DNA of 54,144 bases, filler included, from Sphacelaria rigidula (lineage: Eukaryota): NCBI GenBank assembly GCA_964200075.2. It is 5 parts of 5 records of this genome, joined end to end, with 100 filler letters (N's around TTAATTAATTAA, not from the genome) between each part and the next. Parts side by side here need not be neighbours in the genome. Positions count along the whole stretch, not along the records: positions 21,701 to 32,449 come from CAXNAA020005977.1; 4 more parts are not named here. One strand, 5' to 3'. Each line of letters starts with the position of its first letter. Position 1 is the stretch's first letter. This document shows positions 9,045-54,144 of the stretch, piece by piece. Made by a program: the position numbers and the translations under genes. The notes beneath the pieces are model-generated. The model saw only the letters and a program-made list of their open reading frames with translations. It did not search any database and was not told the DNA's origin.

Positions 9045-9352
9045 GTTCATCAGCTGATGCGCGACAACCAACCAACCAACCGATCGACCAATGAAACTAA
9101 CAACCGACCAACCAACCAACCAACCAATCAATCAATCAATCAATCAATGCCACTCACTCACTCACTCACTCACTCACTCACTCACTCACCCACTCACCCA
9201 CTCACCCACCCACCCGCTCAATCAATCGACCAACCAACCAACCGATCAATCAATCAATCAATCACTCAATCAATCAATCACTCAACAAACCGACCAACCG
9301 ACCAATCAATCGATCAATCAATCACTCAACGACCAGCCAACCGACCAACCAA
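9045..9352 (+). repeat. Compound (CAAC/CAAT/CACT)n tetranucleotide tract, probably the expanded tail of a retroelement
   Basis: The tract follows CATCAGCTGATGCGCGAC. A similar junction (ATCAGTTGATGTTCGACGATCAATCAATC) lies on the minus strand at 32805-32850, and a related end at 868-1015. Confidence 0.6.
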
Positions 9353-10750: not shown

Positions 10751-10850
10751 NNNNNNNNNNNNNNNNNNNNNNNNNNNNNNNNNNNNNNNNNNNNTTAATT
10801 AATTAANNNNNNNNNNNNNNNNNNNNNNNNNNNNNNNNNNNNNNNNNNNN
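10751..10850. other. Artificial contig linker (44 N + TTAATTAATTAA + 44 N)
   Basis: The 12-mer gives stops in all six frames. The same linker recurs about every 10.85 kb. Confidence 0.97.
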
Positions 10851-11617
10851 GGAGTTGAGGTTCTCCCACGCCGCACAACATGATCTAGCTCGACTACCAT
10901 CATGGTTATCGGAGAAAAAACGCGAGCGCGCAAAACAAAAACGGTAACCTGGTTTGCCTAGCTTACGCAGTGGGTGGCGTGTTTTACAGCGTTGTTGCCA
11001 ACCGACGCCACCCCCATCATGGGCATTCGCCCCTACAAAGCCGGGACGGAGCACGCCGGGTTCTCGCCGGACCAGGCTGAAGGGGGAGGGGGGGCGTACT
11101 CATTTGTTGCTTGCCTTAGTCGTTTGACCATTGAAGGGGGAGAGGGGGGAGGGGGTTCGATTTTATGAACAAATGTGCCCATAGATACGTCGAATGACGT
11201 GAAACACTCGCGGTGCGCTTGTATTTCTGTAAAAGTGGTGTAAAGCAGTATGAATGAGCGTTATGTATTGGGAGCGAGCGCGTTCGAACAACTGTTGGCT
11301 GCTTTCAACGGCGATTGAAGTAGAATCTCGTGGAGGGGAAAGCCCAAAATACCCCCCCCTATCGCAGCATGACTCCGTTGTTAGATCTACCGTACAATCG
11401 TGAAGTATGTGTTTTTTTGTCTTTGAGCTGTTACACCCTTACACGTGGTGGGATTCACAATCGAAAGTGCTGTGTCAACAACATACATGAGTTTCGAATT
11501 TGATGTCCGAGTGTGCGGCCAGGCCTTCACCCTCGCGTCTTCCCTTTGCGTTGTCTCCACACGTCGGACGAGTCATTACTCGTCAAAACGAGTGCACCCG
11601 TTGATGTTTTAAACATA

Positions 11618-12060
11618 ACGAGCACGACTCGAGTGCTCGCCCCAAGAACGTTTTCACAACGAGCTTGACTCGAGTGCTCCTCCTATGAATTTTTCCACAA
11701 CGAGCAATGACTCGAGTACTCGCTTCATGATTTTTTCCACGACGAGCGATGACTCGAGTACTCGCCCTATTAACGTTTCAACAACGAGCAATGACTCGAG
11801 TGCTCGCCCTATGAATTTTTCCACGACGAGCGATGACTCGAGTACTCGCCCTATTAATGTTTCAACAACGACCAATGACTCGAGTGCTCGCCCTATGAAT
11901 TTTTCCACGACGAGCAATGACTCGAGTACTCGCCCTATTAACTTTTCACCAACGAGCAATGACTCGAGTGCTCGCCCTATTAACTTTTCCACAACGATTA
12001 AGGACTCGAGTGCTCGCCCCATTAATTTTTGCACAATGATCAATGACTCGAGAGGTCGAG
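11618..12060. repeat. Tandem array of about 11 x 42 bp (ACGAGCAATGACTCGAGT(A/G)CTCGCCCTAT..TT..CAC)
   Basis: CTCGAG recurs every 42 nt. The units partly alternate between two variants (84-bp higher order). Confidence 0.95.
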
Positions 12061-12406: not shown

Positions 12407-12838
12407 TTACGGGTATATTGGCTGTGCACAACGGATGCGCACTCACTGTCTAGCCCCCCCTCGCACCTACTGCCTGCACGGTTCAGCTTATTTGTTCGAA
12501 ACGACGCACGTCCCAGCATGTCGGGTGTTTCCGAAACGATTTGGAGGCATGTGCTATGTCGATTTTGTCCTCCTTGGTATGCTTGTACACGCACAAGATG
12601 CCTTGCACATGCGCCAGGTTGTCTGGTGCGACCGTGAAGGCACGACAGTCTGAAAACATCATCCAGCCTTTTCATGATTTGCGACGTGGGATACCACTCT
12701 GGTCCGCTTTGAAGCTTGACGATTGTACATGTGCAGATATTCATATGGACTTGAAGATTATAGGTCCGAGATCGTCGAGGAGCTCCATATGATTAGGTGC
12801 TCGTCAGATTGCTGACTCCTTGACCCAAGTAGTTCACC

Positions 12839-13075
12839 ACGAGCAATGCCTCGCGTGCTCGCCCTCTTACCGTTTCCTCAACGAGAAACGACTCGAGTAC
12901 TCGCCCTATGAATTTTTCCACGACGAGCAATGACTCGAGTACTCGCCCTACTAAAGCTTCCACAACGAGCAATGACTCGAGAGCTCGCCCCATCAATGTC
13001 TCCACAACGAGCAATGACTCGAGTACTCACCCTATCCATTTTTCCACAACGAGTAGTGACTCGAGCCCTCGGGGA
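12839..13075. repeat. Second array of about 6 x 42 bp of the same unit
   Basis: Same unit and same downstream end module (GGACCTCCAAAAACGG..GTGCCAC..TCGTCCGA.GTGTG) as the first array. Confidence 0.95.
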
Positions 13076-21600: not shown

Positions 21601-21700
21601 NNNNNNNNNNNNNNNNNNNNNNNNNNNNNNNNNNNNNNNNNNNNTTAATTAATTAANNNNNNNNNNNNNNNNNNNNNNNNNNNNNNNNNNNNNNNNNNNN
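21601..21700. other. Artificial contig linker
   Basis: 44 N + TTAATTAATTAA + 44 N. Confidence 0.97.
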
Positions 21701-21789: not shown

Positions 21790-24700
21790 TATAATACTCC
21801 ACCGTTGAAATTCCGGGATTGGCAGTTCCTCATCTCGGAACATTCACTCTCCTCAAGCTTCTCCGCCCCTTTTTCGACTCCATGATGTCATTTCCCCCAT
21901 GTTCTTCGCCACAGTGATCCAATTATGTGCGTCTCCAACCTCCACACCGTAGACGAACCACTTTCGTCGTGCTCCATCGCGTGGAAAAGCCCCTACTGCA
22001 CGGAGGTTCTCCCTGAAGGCGGTTCCCCCAGTGTTTGAGAGGTTCCCCAGCCTCCTTGAGCCCTTGTGTGGCTAACCCTCCGAACATGATGCGCTTTGGC
22101 AGAAGTTGTTCGTCTGGCCGGACAAGTGCCCCCGCAAGCCAGAGTGAACGCCAGTGGAGGGTCGTCTCGATATGTTCACAGTTGATCATCTCGAGCATAC
22201 ATCTCTGTTCGAAAGACTCTCGTCGCCAGTTCGCTCCTTCCTGCAGAATCCAACCACCCGCAGTAGAAGTTGGTGGTGGGCAGCCCGCAGACTCTCCAAG
22301 TCCTCGACACGCAGCGTCCATATCGCACATCCGTGCAGCATGGCTTCCACCACCTCCACTTTGACCAGCCGGATCTGCATAGGTAGCTGGGCGTTGCGCC
22401 CATCTTAGAGCTGGGAATTATACCTTTCGGAGCCGTGCCCACGCAGCGCTGGTGCTGCGGTTGATCCCGATGGAAATATTTGCATCCGCGCTGATAGCAC
22501 CACCGAGGTAGACAAATTCGGTAGTTCTTCTTCTATCATTGACCTGCACCGTTGACGTGCGGTGTATTTATTCTATACGGAGCTGGATGCTGACCACAGG
22601 CGCATGGACTTCGTCTCACTCTCCGATACCGTCAGACCGATTCCCCGACAAGCCATCATTACCACGGCCACCATTCCAGCAAGTCCGCTTGGGAACCTCG
22701 AGAATGCGCCGCCGTCATCCGTATATAGCATTGCCCACACTGCGCGCCGCACGTTCTCCAGCGGGGTCCCTTCCAGGGGCTTCCCATTGTCGCCCTTTGG
22801 CGCATCACCTAAATAAACCGAGTCTGAGACGACGGCTGGGTCGGCCGCGAATCGATGTAAGATCACGTCAACCGATGCTGCGCCGACGATGTTGAACAAT
22901 GGAGGACGAAACGCATCCTTGTCTCTGAGTCCCTGGCACACGTGGAACCACGCTGATGGTTCGCCATCATCTAGCTGTACAGCTCGCATGTCACTGTAAA
23001 ACACACGGGTGACCTTGGTCGTCCGCGGCGGGCCTCCGAAACGGGCAAAAGCACCCTCCACAGGAGCGTGCAGTCTACGGGATCGTAGGCCTTCTGGACG
23101 TCGATCAAGCATATGAGACTAGTGGGACATTGCTCACCCGTCCCAACTCCTGTAGTCGGCGTACCACGAACATCATCTCGGTGGCGTCGTTGGCGCCGAA
23201 ATCCGCACTGCTCCTCCGGGAAGATCCCTGCCTCCTCGAGGAAACTACCGGGCCTGTTGGCCAAGATTTCGAGGAGAGCTCTACCGGCACGTGCCACGAT
23301 GGATATTCTCCTGTAGTTACCACTCGTAATCCCATCCTTTTTGTGTAGCACTTTGATGGTGCCGTTTCCCACCCCTGTTGCACCTCACCCCATGTCCAAA
23401 CCGCAGCGATGATGCTGCGAAAATGGTACAGAATCTCCGACGGCTCCCCGACCAACCCAAACTCGAGGACTTCAGCGAGTAGACCATACGGGCCCGTCAC
23501 TTTGCCGTTAGCTACAGCCCTCAGGGCCTCCTCAGCTTCATTTAGGCTTGGCGGGTCTCCAAGTAACGACGCCGTCGGTCGTTGCGCAATGTTCTCGATG
23601 ACGGCTCGATCGAAAATTGCCGAGAGTATAGAAGTATCATCCCCATCTCTCACAAGTTGGACCTTGGCTCCACAGCAGGTTCCCGTCCTCGTCCCTAATC
23701 TGCTGCTCGCTAACTACCTTTTGTCCCGCCAGACTCCACTTCCCTTGCAGATCTCTGTACCATCCTTTCATGTTCATGATCCTAATTTACTCCTCCAGTT
23801 CCTTCGTACACACATCCGGGTACCTACCCACCCCAGCTTGGATCGCCTCCTTTGAGTTTCTTGCACGCTGTTCTCAAGGTGCACCATGCTGGGCTATTCC
23901 ACGGTCCCATTTGCAACATCAACCTGGCTCTTTCCCTCTCATCCCAGACCTCTTCGAACTTCGTACGGATGACAGCATCTTCGAATCACCCCGATATACC
24001 AGCTGACGGGGCACGACCTTTTCAGCGGAGCTCAGGAGTATGTCGGCGAAGTTCGCAGCCAATGCACTGTCCGTATCGCTAGTTCTACCCTTGCTCGATC
24101 TCGCTGATAATGATCTGGAGCTCTATGTCCGTCAGTGTCGGGTATTCTTGCCCGTCTGTCGATCCGTTTGCACCCAGTGAGGTTTCACCGAGACTTATTG
24201 CATATGCAGCGACCAAGGAGCCACAATGGGGCGTGCACGATGTTGTGGTCAGAGCCCGGAGAGTTGGGTGGTTAATGGTGGACGGTGACATCGCGAACAA
24301 GGCTGCGGTGATCTTGCCGTGTAAGGATGTAGTCCATACGTTTTTGTCCGCGAAGCGGCGGAGCGGCTCCGAATACCATTGAACATAAGCGACGTGGCTC
24401 CCTTGGAGGCAGAAACAAACGCGTTGACCAGGGCAGGCCTGTTGTCACCCGCAAACTAGAGAAAATAGATCCTGCCGCTGTTGTTGGCTCGGGAGCCACC
24501 AACATTTTACACTGCTCTTCCCCGGTTCGTACCCCAGTCTTAGAATTAGTGCTCATCACAACAAGTGGTGATTGTTCGGAACTCGGTTCACAGCGCTGTC
24601 GAACTCAGTCTGGAATATGTCTTTCTCTCCTCTTGACTATGTTGTGTCCGTAGAGGCATAGGCGATTACAAACGTGTCCGCGTTCGATTTGCTTGCGAGA

Positions 24701-25660
24701 TTGAGGGTCATCGACACGAGGCATTTGCTGATGAGCGCCTGAGTCCACGTCGCCTTAACGATGGTCGACTCCTTTACCGCCAACCCGAACCCATAGTGTC
24801 CAGCCCTTCCCTTGCCCCCTTCCACCTCACAGCAGGAGACACGGTATCCCGCGGCAGCGAACACGGTTCGGCTTCGCCTCCTTTTCTCCTGGAGTCCTAT
24901 GACGTCACAACCTATTGCTCGACAGTTGTTCAGAACCACCTCAGCATGTCGAGCTCCGTTCTTTCCCATGACGGACAGTGTACGGACGTCGCATGTCGCC
25001 ACTTTGAACTTCCTTATGTACGAACTAGCTCTATCCTTATCTGTATATACACGTTTTGCTCTTTGTTTTGCGCTTCTTTTGGATCTGTTCCTCCCTCGAA
25101 TCTTTCGCGCGAGATTTCCTTTTTCTGTTTCAATTTTTCCTTGCCATATCAATAATGATTCTCGCCTTGCCTTCCGTTTTTTTATCTCACGTGGAGAGTG
25201 TAGCTGTTCCAGCCCGCGTCGGCCACTACCTCCAGTCCGCTGAAGCTGGCACCTACTCACACATATTTCGTCCCCGTTGATGTGTTTACCGTGACAGAGC
25301 CCCAGCTTGGGGTAAAACTCTGCAGCTGCGGGGACGAGTTCGGGTTCCCATACGGGGCAAAACACAGCAGCTGCAGGGTCGAGTCTGGAGTTCAACGCTG
25401 TCAGCATGGCCCGCTGCCTAGACGGTGTGTTGCATCACCACTGACACAAAGCACAGATTAGTTTGCAGTTCATGCGACTCTCTCCTACGCATGGTTGTGT
25501 TGTTTGGTTGCTGGTTGCGGTTAGCTCACCGCACAATATTCGCCGGAAGCCACAAATGGATCCCAGTTGGTCACACATACTTTGATGCACAAAACGGCTG
25601 ACTTGGTTACGCCTCATAGTTGATTCAGGGATTGGGGATTACGGAGCTTATTTTGTGTCC
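21790..25660 (-). mobile_element. Near full-length degenerate non-LTR retrotransposon (LINE, single APE endonuclease + RT ORF, RTE-like)
   Basis: Frameshifted pieces give APE motifs (VATCDVRTL, DVIGLQE, GFGLAV, VIAYAST, DYILTRQ). RT motifs are also present (PPSLNEAEEAL..GKVTGP, IKVLHKK..NYRRISI, EEQCGFR, IDVQKAYD, QGLR..PPLFNI, MLYTDD), followed by the C-terminal WLAGALVR..LPKRIMFG. Boundaries are approximate. Confidence 0.92.
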
Positions 25661-30104: not shown

Positions 30105-30490
30105 ACCTCAGCTACGTAGTCTACGATCAAGTGTCTTGGCTCACCTACTGTACGATCAAATGACTTGGTTTGCCCACACTCGGTTCTACCAACTTGCTTC
30201 ACCAACTCAGTAGACCAAGGAACCTGCCTCAGCTGGTCGAAGATCAAGTGACTTGGTTCATCTATACCTACTTCAAGTCAGTTGAATCAGCTCGTCCAAG
30301 ATCAAGTGACTTAGTTTAGCAATACTCAATTCAAGTGACTTGCTGCCCCGACTGTTGGATCAAGTGACCTGCCTCAGCTATTCCAAGAGCAAGTGTCTTG
30401 CTTCACTTCTTCTCAGTTCAAGTGACTGGCCCCAGCTGGTCTATGATCAAGTGATCTGTCTCAGCTAGTCTAAGATGGAGTGACTTGTTG
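30105..30490. repeat. Degenerate minisatellite with a ~30-bp period and core (GA/T)TCAAGTGACTT
   Basis: About 11-12 recurrences of TCAAGTG(A/T)C(T/C)T with variable intervening sequence. Confidence 0.75.
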
Positions 30491-32449: not shown

Positions 32450-32549
32450 NNNNNNNNNNNNNNNNNNNNNNNNNNNNNNNNNNNNNNNNNNNNTTAATTA
32501 ATTAANNNNNNNNNNNNNNNNNNNNNNNNNNNNNNNNNNNNNNNNNNNN
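32450..32549. other. Artificial contig linker
   Basis: 44 N + TTAATTAATTAA + 44 N. Confidence 0.97.
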
Positions 32550-43297: not shown

Positions 43298-43397
43298 NNN
43301 NNNNNNNNNNNNNNNNNNNNNNNNNNNNNNNNNNNNNNNNNTTAATTAATTAANNNNNNNNNNNNNNNNNNNNNNNNNNNNNNNNNNNNNNNNNNNN
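43298..43397. other. Artificial contig linker
   Basis: 44 N + TTAATTAATTAA + 44 N. Confidence 0.97.
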
Positions 43398-45541: not shown

Positions 45542-46952
45542 TCACATATAGGCATAACGCTCGTGTAGCACCCCGCCCGCGCCGGCGTGTACACCATACC
45601 CGTCGCTCCGACCGCCAGCGGCCGCCACCGCCGCCAGCCTCACCAGCGGGGGCATATACCCGCCGCCACCCCTCACCCGCCGCCCGACAGTATCTTCATC
45701 GTGGTTGCTGCGCCGTTCCCACTCGGAGATGCTGTGGTGAAACCTTCTATACCCCGAGTCACTTCCCCCCGGGTTGCGGCGAAAACCACCGCTACTGCCG
45801 CCGCCGTGCTTGGTCTCGCCTTCCACACTCCGCTCAGCAGACAGCTTTTTCCCTGAAGCAGCGTCGCAACTCGCGGCGTCACCACCGGTACCGCGGTCGC
45901 CTACCGCACCCGGCGCCACAGTGTCGCTGTGCTCACTGTCCGTCTCGCCGCTTGCACTCGGGGACCCCGGCGTCTTCACGATAGGGGGAAGTGCTCGGGA
46001 ATTTCGCGAGGCTGTCTCGTTGCCAGCGGTCGGTGGGAGAAATCCCACGTCCGAATCTCCGGGCGGGGCTTTCGAAGAAGACGACTTCTCTGAGGAGGAC
46101 GATGCCGCGACGGTAACGCGAAGCCCGGCGGCTATGACGCCGGATCGTGGCGTAGTAGTAGCGGCGCTGTCACCGCTCAATGAGGTGTTGTCTCCGTCGT
46201 CGTGGTCATTGCTGGTATTGCCGATGTGACTCTCGGGTCCTGCATCCGTGCGCACAGGCGCGCGAGAACCGAAGGACAAGTGTTGCTTTTGTTTTTCTTG
46301 CTGCCGCTGGCATGTCAGCGCGCCGTCTCTGTCCAGATCGCTTCCCATGGCATCTACCTCTGCAGAGTGCGACTCTGAGGCGGCAGTGCGGCGCGCCGAC
46401 GGATAACTACTTTCCCGGGGAGAAAGTTCTCCACAAGTATCTGCGAGTCTTTCTTTGCCGTTGTCGCGGCTGCGCGGCTTGTCCGAACTCCCGGTCTGTG
46501 ATTCTACCGTCTTGTCCGCTAGGGGATCAGTGTCGAAATGTTTTTTCGGCGACGGCGACGACGATGATGGTGATGAATTCATGGGTACCTTCCCCAGACC
46601 AACAAGGATCTCAGCCTCAGCTTTGCAGTCCCCCATCGCCTTATCGGCTGTCGTCGACGCCGGAGAAGCAGCAGCGTCGCCCTTGCCTGCGGTCTCAGAG
46701 CTTCCCTGCGACGGCGGTCGGCTCGCCGAACGGTCCCGAGCGCAGCACACGGAGTTCTTTTTGGTCAGAGTAGGGCTCGTCGCGGCTGCCGTGCAGTCGT
46801 CGGTGGAGGCGGCCGGGCCGTTTTTCTCGTCCGGCGAGTTTGGCGAAGAATAGGCAGCCCTTTGCCCCGCCACAGCCAAGAGCTGATCCTGTTTAGCCCT
46901 GTGCGCGCGGCTCAACCCGTCGTATTTTCTTCTCGCGGCATCGAGTTCTCTC
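45542..46952 (-). CDS. Probable terminal exon of a large low-complexity protein (short coiled coil, then a Ser/Ala/Gly-rich disordered tail)
   Basis: 1.4-kb GC-rich open frame. A CCCTCAG acceptor extends the listed ORF with RELDAARRKYDGL. It ends at TGA. Confidence 0.8.
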
Positions 46953-47989
46953 CTGAGGGTTAATAGGTGAAAGTTGTTCGGAAGGCGGTGGTAAGCACAA
47001 GGCGTGGTGACGGAGTATCGAAATCAACAGAGTGAGACAGGCACGAGCGGGAAGAAGTGGAGACAGCAAAACCTGGAGAGAAGCCCATGATCGTCAGTGA
47101 CTCGGGAGTCGGTACCCAGGGTTCGGTACCGGCTTTGCGCTGAATTGTGCTGTTGGCTTGCCAATGCCATTGGGATTGCGCCCGAACACGAAAGCTTGAG
47201 TATTTTCAATACTGAAACACCGTTGTACACGCTGGGTGGCTCGCCATCAGTATGTAGGACAACCCCTCGCAACGGGGCATTTCTATAAGCCGACAAAAGG
47301 TTGGGTCCCGGTAAGCATGGAACCGATACATGTTCACGCGTCAACTATAGTTTGTCCTTGGACCGGAAATCACACCGTTTCGACGGTTCTATAGATACTG
47401 GCGGTGTTGTGAAGTACCGACTGCATTCCCCAACCCACGCCTATAAATGGCTACATACAGCACGGCCATCAAATACACAATAGTCTATGCTGCTCCCGTG
47501 TCAGCGTCATGAGCTTCAATCAGTGCCCCGATGCGTGAGACCTCTTCGAAAATCAGTAAGGGCGGGTGGACGACACAAACAAGGACGGTTATTTTTTTCC
47601 CGTGAGCTCGAAAAGTCTACTCGTCGGTGGGAAATGTCCGTTAACTATCTCGCTCCGAAGATAGACCAAAAATCAAGTCTGTTCGTAAAGGAACATAGTC
47701 GTAGCTATAATAGGATTGCTGGTGTATTTATTCCACCTATTCCTGGGCCGTCCTGACAAGTGCCCCGCTCCCCACCACAAGGTACACCCCGCTTCTGCTC
47801 GTCTGCGGGACTACCACCCAAAATTTCTTGTTCCGAGGTGAAGCTGGCATTGAAAGGATGGATGGGCATTATGGAGAGCAAGCTTCACCTCGCGTACGTT
47901 CCTGACCACTCCATATTGGAGACCCACGCCTACTCGGACATCACTCCACTACATACGTGAACACAATTGAGATATTCGCAACAAATTAC

Positions 47990-50642: not shown

Positions 50643-51642
50643 TTAACCGCGATCACGAAAGTATCGACTGCAGTGGGCTCCGCTATCGAGCAATGCCCTG
50701 GGCATTCATGGACTCCGAATGGCCAACATGTACTCCACATGCACTGGGTCAAGACAGCGGAGTATTGTACACAATTACGTCAACGTATTCCGTCCATTCG
50801 TTCGACACTGAGATGCTCATCATCAACGTGCGGGCAGTTTCACGTGATCCCAGCGTGCCGATACGAAAAAAAGTTCCAACTGCACACTGACAGGGCGATT
50901 CGAGCTCTCGCCAACGCACGCGCTGCTAGCGCACGCTACACCCGGGACACCACCCTGTGGACCTCCCCCCTGCTCGATTCCGAAAGGGATGCATGGTCAG
51001 CGGTCGAATGACTACGGCAAGCAACTAATGAGTAAGCCCCCCCGCCCCCCTGCTTCTCGAGGTTTGGTTTCGGGGTGCGAGTTTCGGTTACAGGCCGCTT
51101 CGAGGAGATTCCATGAACTTTCCGGCAGCCATTACTTACGCCGTTTTCAAGAGTTGGGACAAAAAAAATGGCACATATGTTTCCTGGAGGTAAGCCAAAG
51201 GTCGACAGTAACGGCGCTTTCAATGCACGTCAGCGATTGACCATTTCATGGCAAATTCGCCAGATTTTTCCTCACTCATGCTGTATCTGTGTGTAATAGA
51301 AACGAGAGCCTCGCAGCGCGAAATCTCAAGGATTCAGGGGGCGCGAACGACGGTCATCACGTGACCACGCTCCCTGCACTCTGAAGGTGTATCGATAAAC
51401 AGCAAGTGTATCACGGAAGGAACGTGGGTGTGGGCTTGCAACCCGCGTGGTTCCGATAAATCTGTCGGGGCAGAGTTTTCACGCGAGATTTTTCTTTCCG
51501 CATAAGGCGATCCTAGGTACAGTACGAAATTCCCTGCAACAAACCACCAGGGACACACAGTACATACATTGATATTTTTGCTCGAACGTCACAAGAGGGA
51601 AATAACCCAGCCGTCGGACGCGTAGAAACACGAAACACGTAC

Positions 51643-53635
51643 CTGTCCCGCGCGAACATTTCCGGAGGCCTCGGTGTTACTCCCCGACGACCCGCAGCGC
51701 CGTTTCTTCAGCGGACGCGCGCGATCTTCGCTGGGGGAACGGCTCCGTCCATCTATTTCTGCCGACGCCCGGCCCGACTTCCGTGCGTCGGGAATTACTT
51801 GGGAAATAGCAGGCAGACACCCACTGCCGCGGTACGGCGCAGTAGAGTTCAAAGACTCGCCGGTCGCAGGTCTTTTCGGGGCGGCCGGGATCAAAGCCGA
51901 CGACGTCCCGGGAGCGGCGGCAGAGAACGTGGGCCCTTCCGCCGCTCTGTATGGCCTGTCGTGAAGATAGCTGGGAGAGGAGCGCCCACCGGTCTCCGGG
52001 ATACCGCGAGGGGCGGGGGACGCAGAAACCCGTCTCTCACTGCCACCGCCGCCGCCGCCGCTTCTGCTGCTGCCGCACGAGCTACGCATGGCCGCAAGGC
52101 GCATGTACCCCTGAGCAAGAAGTGCCCCATCGCCTGAATCAGGGGCCTCGGGGGCAGCAGCACGAGTGTCCCTGACGACACGAGCATCAGCAGCCGCGCT
52201 GCGTGGGTCCATGTTCATCGAACCTCGCGCGTCTAGGTGACGCCCGAATCTGGCATCGTGTTCTACAGCGGGCTGTGAAACATCGCCGTACCCACCGCCG
52301 CCGATGCTATTGCTGCTTTGGCGACCACTTGCGCCATGGAAATCCCGCCCAGTCATCAGAACGTCCTCGTGGCGAGGGTGGCGGGCTCCCACACCAACGC
52401 TTCCGGCGAAGGTTGCCCTCCCGAAGCGGTCACCATCGGCGTGCTCATTCATACCCCCTCTACGGACACGCTCCCACGCACCAACGCCCACAGCACGTTC
52501 GTCCACATCCCAAGGCGCTTCTCGATGTGGCGGCCCTTGCCCAACCCACAGGCCACCAACAGCCCGGCCCAAAGGATGACACTGGTGATCCCACCGCGTA
52601 GAGCTAGTCGCCGGGATTGTCTCCGGCACCATCGAGCGATCACGATCGTGCATATCTCGATCTGTACCGCTCCCCACAACCCCCAGGGCGGCCGGTCGTA
52701 CGCCCCCATCGGCCCCTCGCTGCACGCGCCATTGCGGCCTCGGGTTTTGTCCCCAGGTCGCCGCGCCGAGCACAGGGCTACCAGCGCCGTGAATTGGCTG
52801 CCATACCGACTCACGGCCCCAGCGCGGATGCTCGTTCAGCCTGTCGCTACCCCCGGCACCCCCACGACTACCCATCGTCTGGGGCAGCGGTGGTCTGCGC
52901 TCCCTTTCGCTTCCAGATTGTTGGCAATGATACGGCCCTGCCGCAGGTGACATACGCGAAGGGACACCGATGGAGAGCCCGTTGGCGTCGTGGCTGCTGC
53001 TTCCTGCAGTGGTGGTAGAGGATACGGATGCAGATCCTAACGAGCGCCCCGGCGCCCCCACGCCGTGGGGATGATGGCGACGCACCGCCAAGGACGGGGA
53101 TGGCGGAGTTGGCGAACAAGAACTTGGGGAGCGCGGTCGACCCACGGAGACAACGTCGCCATCTGTTGCGCCATCATCGCCACCACCCTCGCTGCGTTGA
53201 TAGCGGTGATGCTGATGATGCTGCTGCTGCTGCTGCTGCCGCTGGGGCGGCATCACAGCCGGCGGCGACACGTTGTTACTGCCGCCGACATCGTTGGCAC
53301 CATCCCTCTTGCTGTCCCGGCGCCGACTGCGGAAGTGACGAATCTGCAGCTTGGACCCCAGACTTTCGTCGCGATGCATGCCCAGCGCTTCAACCTCTTC
53401 TTCAGTCAGGGTTGAGGCATCGAAACGGGTGCTATTACGCAGGCCGCGGCGGATGATTGTGTCAAAGAACGGCGTCCTCTCGAACTTACCATCCGACGGC
53501 CGGATCAAAACTTTGGCCTCCTCCCACCCGCACTCGTAAAAAGCCTTGCGCGCGCGAGACGCACTTTGTAGAATTTGGGCCGTGAAGTCCATCCTCTCAA
53601 ACTGCGCTGGGTGTCGCGTTACGAGCCATCGATAA
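51643..53635 (-). CDS. ~2-kb internal exon of a large unidentified protein (ordered-looking N-terminal ~90 aa, then Gly/Ser/Arg/Pro-rich disorder with a poly-Q/H run and a PLKKRR NLS-like motif)
   Basis: 664-codon GC-rich open frame. A CCAG acceptor adds YRWLVTRHPAQFER before the listed Met, and the donor is CAG|GTACGT. Probably the same gene as 45542-48279, but the connecting exon(s) are unresolved. Confidence 0.82.
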
Positions 53636-54144
53636 CTGGTAGTGTTTCAAGGTAGAGGCCGGGTGCGAGGTGCGGGGAAACGGGGTTGGGCCGCTTCATG
53701 TCTGTACTACGACGGGGGTATGCATCGCACAGCAGAACCATTCACGTCAACTTTACGAGGAAGGAGTGTAAAATTGTAAGTTGAGGCGTGGGGTATGAAA
53801 GGATGTACACGAGACATGGGTATAATAACATTGATGACATTCACAGAGAAAAAGCTGCACGTCTTCAGGCCGCTTCTTCTGGTCCCCCCCTCCGCCAAAA
53901 ACTAATCTGCTGCACAACCGCCCAATGGTTCCTTCTGCGTCGTTTTACATGCGAAAAGGGCTGGAAGGATTTTCACACCTTACAATCATTTGTACTCTCA
54001 TTTTCACGTTTCGTGAGAATGGTGTCGCGTGAGGACGAAGGGTTAGGGGGGCGACTGCAGTGATACCTTTCCACTACGAGCTGGGCCAGCCTAGAAACGG
54101 ATTTAAGCTCTAACAGCAATATCTCATCGACACAGACGAGTTGG

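Follow-up and report, generated by a model that had tools for sequence, protein, structure and literature searches.

How a retrotransposon protein chooses its own RNA (cis preference) is a long-standing question, on which one structural proposal has been made, for human L1. Residues 272-297 of L1 ORF2p (the PIE) contact RRM1 of PABPC1 in an AlphaFold3 prediction supported by mutations, and co-translational binding of PABPC by ORF2p has been proposed to set cis preference, with protection of the tail as a further role (PMC7617806; here and below, PMC numbers refer to excerpts of the articles). The PAM2 motif, which binds the MLLE domain of PABP, has the consensus xxLNPxAxEFxP, and its Trp variant (PAM2w) also binds oligo(A) (PMC6486636). 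The roles of the motif positions in binding have been described, as has the pair of motifs of eRF3, which overlap, share a Phe and bind 1:1 (PMC2854688).

Here we describe a LINE of the brown alga Sphacelaria rigidula whose single ORF begins with two PAM2-like motifs. As in human L1, a LINE endonuclease-RT protein would carry its own PABP-docking element near the N-terminus. However, the L1 PIE lies in the linker after the endonuclease and contacts RRM1, whereas the algal motif precedes the endonuclease and should contact MLLE; PAM2 and MLLE are not mentioned in the excerpt of PMC7617806. Moreover, L1 has an ORF1 and a poly(A) tail that is used for priming and copied, whereas the algal LINE has one ORF and (CAAT)n ends. 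By analogy, the algal motif may work like the L1 PIE, but it would not be the PIE system.

There is also a likeness to the cellular MLLE ligands eRF3, Paip2, ataxin-2 and LARP4: the consensus is matched, sister copies pass the cut-off of the Pfam family PF07145, and a LARP4-like Trp variant is present in three relatives. These ligands are host proteins, whereas here the predicted motif rides on mobile elements. The analogy with the eRF3 pair is loose, because the eRF3 motifs overlap and bind 1:1, while those of the LINE have a 15-residue period without overlap. Elements of the RTE clade have a single ORF and a 3' end in short tandem repeats, not poly(A), and RTE-1/BovB-type elements likewise encode APE endonuclease and RT in one ORF and end in short tandem 3' repeats. 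An N-terminal PAM2, which is a feature of the present families, was not found described for RTE elements or any LINE in the literature searched.

The LINE copy and its single ORF

The window, i.e. the whole stretch of DNA analysed (54,144 nucleotides), consists of several contigs joined at runs of N around a 12-base linker (10751-10850, 21601-21700, 32450-32549 and 43298-43397), and order across these gaps is not assured. It contains on the minus strand a dead and decayed copy of a brown algal RTE-type LINE, with the following features:

25408..25530, minus strand: 5' UTR of the LINE, the portion alignable to sister copies; the extreme 5' hairpin of the family is decayed or lost in this copy
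25418..25435, minus strand: five-codon upstream ORF (MQHTV*) in another frame, overlapping the in-frame TGA (25437-25435) that closes the main frame upstream
24637..25407, minus strand: open 5' part of the single LINE ORF, 256 codons, with a premature stop within the endonuclease
25354..25389, minus strand: PAM2-like motif 1, residues 7-18, SRLDPAAAVFCP (sister copies SRLNPAA[S/A]EFYP)
25309..25344, minus strand: PAM2-like motif 2, residues 22-33, PELVPAAAEFYP (sister copies [T/P]KLNPAAA[A/E]FYP)
25003..25308, minus strand: basic leader of about 100 residues (24-38% K+R in relatives)
24194..25002, minus strand: APE endonuclease and following linker, interrupted by stops and frameshifts
22010..23852, minus strand: reverse transcriptase and C-terminal region in several frame-shifted pieces, located by tblastn with the relative P0004
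21852..25447, minus strand: entire aligning stretch, 70.5% identical to a younger copy of the family

The ORF starts at the ATG at 25407, opens with MLTALNSRLDPAAAVFCPVWEPELVPAAAEFYP, continues with the basic stretch, in which no Pfam domain was found, and enters the APE endonuclease at KFKVATCDV..IGLQE; it remains open for 256 codons up to the stop at 24637-24639. The two motifs had been placed at 25309..25389 in an earlier note on this DNA, and these limits proved exact and in frame with the endonuclease: position 25389 belongs to Ser7 and 25309 is the last base of Pro33, so that residues 7-33 are covered. Apart from these two peptides, none of the window's six frames contains a match to a loose PAM2 core, and both peptides hold the five core residues (Leu3, Pro/Val5, Ala7, Phe10, Pro12). 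The Pfam PAM2 model gave no match in the leader of the window copy itself. Neither the 3' UTR nor the repeat tail of this copy was seen before the assembly gap at 21700.

The upstream ORF (25418-25437, minus strand) reads ATG CAA CAC ACA GTC TAG in most copies and ends 10 nt before the main ATG. The TGA that it overlaps is conserved. The ATG of the upstream ORF is missing in some older copies. A further fragment of the same family, a 3' end with decayed repeat tail that is 73% identical to the copy L066, lies at 870-1071 of the window (minus strand).

Sister copies in the genome

A DNA search of the assembly (244 Mb, 27,214 contigs) gave 178 candidates, of which 40 were scored and 30 fetched. 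All of those fetched are dead; among them, the closest pair is 90% identical and the median is 73%. The sister copies are closer to the PAM2 consensus than the window copy, their canonical reading being SRLNPAASEFYP...KLNPAAAAFYP. In the 29 copies of the DNA search, a set unbiased as to the motif, motif 1 retained L in 26, N in 20, P in 23, A in 25, E in 24, F in 23 and the final P in 23 copies; for motif 2 the counts were L 21, N 21, P 22, A 27, F 23 and P 27. Among gap-free dead copies, the full set of five core residues survives for motif 1 in 15 of 28 and for motif 2 in 11 of 26. The consensus match of the sister copies includes the named binding determinants L3, P5, A7, E9, F10 and P12 (PMC2854688, PMC6486636). 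A Pfam scan, which the earlier note had suggested, gave a divided answer: one sister copy reaches 24.2 bits against a gathering cut-off of 20 for PF07145, and the window copy goes unmatched.

Of 39 copies, 30 retain the ATG, and 26 of 29 have an in-frame stop at most 12 codons upstream of it. Homology within the family starts only about 200 nt 5' of the ATG, and there is therefore no room for an ORF1; together with the retained ATG and the upstream stop, this led us to reject a separate ORF1, in agreement with the first reading of the sequence. A later start codon was likewise rejected, on account of the upstream stop, the retained ATG and the finding that the motif is in frame in five copies from this genome and in seven database relatives. 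Two of the objections foreseen by the earlier note, a downstream start and an out-of-frame motif, thus find no support in the copies. The motif and the endonuclease share one open frame in the window copy and in L065, L066, L071 and L072. Only 18 of 38 dead copies have an ATG-to-endonuclease distance divisible by three, a count blurred by an A-run. A copy with an open frame reaching from the motif to the end of the RT was not found, nor was any intact full-length copy seen.

A conserved 5' hairpin (CCCCGAC...GTCGGGG) is shared by the 5' UTRs of L010-L030, as is a stem that closes immediately ahead of the ATG. Rfam gave no match on 18 loci, and therefore no described ribozyme is present in the 5' UTR; RNAalifold of 20 5' UTRs returned a weak structure without covariation.

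Selection on the motif codons

The ratio pN/pS was calculated between the majority codons of 19 younger and 11 older copies, the dead copies serving as a proxy for their source elements. Nine of the 39 aligned copies belonged to neither age group and were omitted; among the 19 younger copies, seven had been obtained through the PAM2 scan. Conservation of the motif with low dN/dS had been named by the earlier note as a test, and the motif is indeed conserved at the amino-acid level: motif 1 has a pN/pS of 0.11 between the subfamilies (three synonymous changes and one nonsynonymous, which are small counts), and the key codons change only synonymously. For motif 2 the value is 0.67, from one synonymous and two nonsynonymous changes, one of the latter being a counting artefact of a Leu-to-Leu codon pair; the younger subfamily has Ala for Glu at position 9. 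By comparison, the endonuclease has a pN/pS of 0.10 and the basic leader has values of 0.49 and 0.24 in its two halves, and the five-codon linker between the repeats shows four nonsynonymous changes and no synonymous one. The residues L, N, P, A, F and P are constant across five versions of the motif (both repeats of each of the two subfamilies, and the motif of the second LINE family described below), and each of their codons varies synonymously. A value of 0.28 for the motif codons of young copies was set aside, because some of those copies had been chosen by the PAM2 scan. Small as the counts are, these data show that the binding residues are under purifying selection.

Database relatives

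A profile search gave 10 longer proteins and 624 representatives at 50% clustering, of which 150 were listed; most of the listed relatives are fragments beginning inside the leader or the endonuclease, and one is named Ectocarpus. Fourteen proteins have a leader of 95-165 residues, one of them being the window's own protein; one more row was dropped as a false endonuclease match. Among these listed full-size leaders, the PAM2 core starts at residue 3-9 in 8 of 14, and in three of the eight Phe is replaced by Trp (LNPYAPAWTP, LNPNAPAWTP, LNPKAPAWTP). The chance control gave no core match in 12,730 downstream residues of the relatives and none in 2000 leader shuffles. The six leaders lacking the core are those of one decayed member of the second family, two proteins with a doubtful start, two in a motif-less lineage (P0009 and P0024) and P0004, the only complete ORF seen (1236 aa). 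In an endonuclease tree of 17 rows, with weak deep branches, the rows that carry the motif are spread over four separate clades. These motif-bearing rows are 35-70% identical over the first 60 residues of the endonuclease, their leaders being otherwise 19-51% identical.

Further searches were unproductive. The window ORF found no homologue among 3377 candidates of the longer proteins, a metagenome scan gave 66 pattern matches, none a relative, an Atlas search with the leader returned only matches under 0.9, and a PDB sequence search with the 38-residue tandem peptide gave none.

PAM2 matches in other mobile elements

A six-frame scan of the genome with PF07145 gave 91 scored candidates and 89 listed matches, all of which were classified. 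Retrotransposon N-termini account for 85 of the 89: 35 belong to the LINE family of the window, 19 to a second LINE family and 31 to a Ty3/Gypsy family. The best Pfam E-values per genome are only 0.03-0.15. Because the copies of each family descend from few sources, the 85 matches amount to about three independent observations. The earlier note had missed the presence of the motif at the start of the ORF in a second LINE family and in a Gypsy family.

The second LINE family has a different leader with one motif (MMTALNPDAAEFFP), in frame with the endonuclease. In this RTE-like family (L071:4673-5599, minus strand; L072:704-1798, plus strand) the PAM2 is followed by an EFFP-x-EFFP echo, the leader is longer, and the CAAT tail is the same.

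In the Gypsy family, the first ORF begins with MSGNPLNPQAQPFYP, followed by a Q/P-rich tract. Long copies encode RT, RNase H and integrase in the order of other Ty3/Gypsy elements, from which the family differs by this start. No Pfam Gag domain and no zinc knuckle were found in the first ORF, which is presumed by its position to be Gag. An in-frame stop lies nine codons upstream of the Met in two copies, and in others the frame is open further up. The ten codons of the motif vary almost only synonymously among 28 copies, all of them picked by the motif. Loci of this family include L064:2285-9899 (plus strand, G000:C5640), L061-L063 and L073-L077, with two subfamilies about 77% identical. Some copies (L109, L112-L114, L116, L117, L128, L131) keep the PAM2 start but depart from the long ORF some 40 codons on, where they have another sequence in common; they are possibly non-autonomous derivatives. 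Four PAM2 matches without a repeat-bait match (L092, L097, L102, L107) are probably exons of host PAM2 proteins.

No paper on PAM2 in retrotransposon proteins was found in a literature search whose coverage stopped short of most subscription journals and of the Repbase reports, and the term 'PABP-interacting motif' was absent from the Gag papers listed. For human L1, docking of the LINE protein on PABP as a basis of cis preference is in print, with another motif and another PABP domain (PMC7617806).

The 3' end and the clade

Both LINE families have a U-rich 3' UTR of about 500 nt followed by CAAT repeats. Two or more (A)AATC units are present in 28 of 30 LINE 3' ends of the window family, and the second family has a repeat tail in two of two complete ends. 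A plain tail of poly(A) is absent from all 30 ends, although a run of 8 A interrupts the repeats of one. Unlike in L1, PABP therefore cannot supply a primer template of poly(A), and this is the main result against the L1 form of the model in the earlier note, in which the protein would capture its own poly(A) RNA. That idea stands only as tethering through a tail that is not copied.

A strongly conserved segment at the 3' terminus of the LINE family could alone select the template RNA; the hairpin at this terminus does not exceed shuffled sequences in stability (z -0.46). The final 100 nt of the element (L066:4728-4878) are far commoner than its 5' end (2328 vs 178 first-look candidates), with a steep rise in depth in the contigs, an excess that may reflect heavy 5' truncation or SINE-like partners sharing the tail.

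In this LINE family the APE endonuclease is followed by the RT, as in RTE elements, and the nearest named Atlas clusters are endonucleases like CFDP2, which we take to be of RTE origin. The single ORF, the repeat ends and the CFDP2-like neighbours point to membership of the RTE clade.

The host PABP

An exon of the host PABP is 96% identical to a protein of Scytosiphon promiscuus. The gene, on G000:C725, runs off the contig before the MLLE exons, and searches of the assembly by family, pattern and protein did not find a host MLLE exon. However, the host exons are 80-98% identical to PABPs that have a C-terminal MLLE domain bearing the KITGMLLE signature, and this domain matches solved human MLLE chains at E about 5e-26. 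As judged by these sequences, brown algal PABP has a conventional MLLE domain.

A possible role in cis preference

The best reading of the LINE peptides is that they are functional PAM2 motifs, placed singly or in pairs at the very start of the only ORF of brown algal RTE-type LINEs. It is probable, on the grounds of consensus and conservation, that they bind the MLLE domain of cytoplasmic PABP. We favour, by a modest degree, the further view that the nascent protein is tethered co-translationally to its own mRNA via PABP, provided that the RNA has an uncopied poly(A) tail beyond the repeats. The PAM2, being the first part to leave the ribosome, would bind PABP on the poly(A) tail of the mRNA under translation, and the nascent endonuclease-RT protein would be kept close to the 3' end of the RNA that encodes it, until its basic leader and RT grip the 3' UTR and the (CAAT)n repeats. 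Reverse transcription would then begin in the repeats, leaving the poly(A) tail uncopied. The 15-residue spacing of the tandem motifs might let the pair engage two PABP molecules on one tail. The Gypsy family in this genome has a like device where its first ORF begins, and there it could serve cis-packaging. A motif fixed at the extreme N-terminus in two unrelated classes of element fits co-translational tethering.

Several other explanations have to be weighed against this one. The motif might bind MLLE and yet serve the stability or translation of mRNA, shielding its own (or any) mRNA from deadenylation through competition with PAN3/Tob-type PAM2 proteins, in the manner of LARP1/LARP4, or drawing the RNP into PABP-rich granules. 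Competition for MLLE does govern deadenylation (PMC2854688, PMC9753129), and a like protection has been suggested for L1 (PMC7617806). Such a role needs no link to poly(A) priming, fits the (CAAT)n ends and would suit the long, U-rich 3' UTR. Alone, it does not account for a motif that in LINE and Gypsy ORFs invariably begins at one of the first nine residues, whereas cellular PAM2 motifs are often internal. We give it a minor but appreciable share of the probability; it is compatible with tethering, which is the best explanation. It appears much less likely that the motif competes with eRF3 for MLLE, altering termination or shielding a long-3'-UTR RNA from nonsense-mediated decay. The two PAM2 motifs by which eRF3 binds MLLE (PMC2854688), the length of the 3' UTR and the short upstream ORF before the start speak for this idea, but a single-ORF LINE needs no read-through, decay should be promoted, not blocked, when eRF3 is displaced from PABP (PMC9753129), and the LINE motifs do not overlap as those of eRF3 do.

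Conservation of the peptide for some other cause, i.e. direct RNA binding as in the PAM2w of LARP4A, another MLLE-bearing protein, or constraint at the RNA level, is unlikely, if somewhat less so than an effect on termination. The LARP4A PAM2w binds both oligo(A) and MLLE (PMC6486636) and three relatives have the Trp variant; most lineages, however, have Phe at this place, and in LARP4A a Phe does not sustain binding to oligo(A). As for the RNA, both repeats contain the Ala-Ala-Ala codon palindrome GCAGCTGC, but the second LINE and the Gypsy families encode the conserved amino acids by other codons and lack the palindrome, which was rejected as the cause of conservation on this ground. Finally, PAM2 is short, the Pfam E-values are weak and the independent observations few, so that a chance likeness multiplied by copy number, without function, might be considered. 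The synonymous-only change at key codons, the N-terminal position fixed in deep lineages with divergent leaders, the zero background matches and the recurrence of the motif in an unrelated LTR family have largely refuted this already, and we regard it as very improbable.

Tethering through PABP thus remains our preferred explanation. More tentatively, and with less confidence than we place in tethering itself, PAM2 at the start of RTE-type LINEs and Ty3/Gypsy elements may be an independently acquired, portable device for cis capture via MLLE, working even where no poly(A) is copied, and a second solution beside the PIE-RRM1 contact of L1. Its presence at the ORF starts of both classes means that PABP tethering may have arisen more than once. 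As the motif is a 12-residue textbook motif with known affinity-killing substitutions, the model can be tested by a point change. If true, it would extend to single-ORF elements without terminal poly(A), the type used as gene-insertion tools (PMC13708176), and the elements described here would be mimics of host translation factors.

Other features of the window

A microsatellite array of (CAAT/CAAC/CACT)n lies at 9065-9329 (plus strand), with no link to the LINE 3' UTR by blastn. Two arrays of a 42-bp unit are present at 11617-12052 and 12835-13065 (10.4 and 5.5 copies, respectively), and a 29-bp array at 30358-30484. Two long low-complexity open frames of 493 and 685 aa, at 45542-47023 and 51589-53646 (both minus strand), have no Pfam match and are probably large exons of a host gene.
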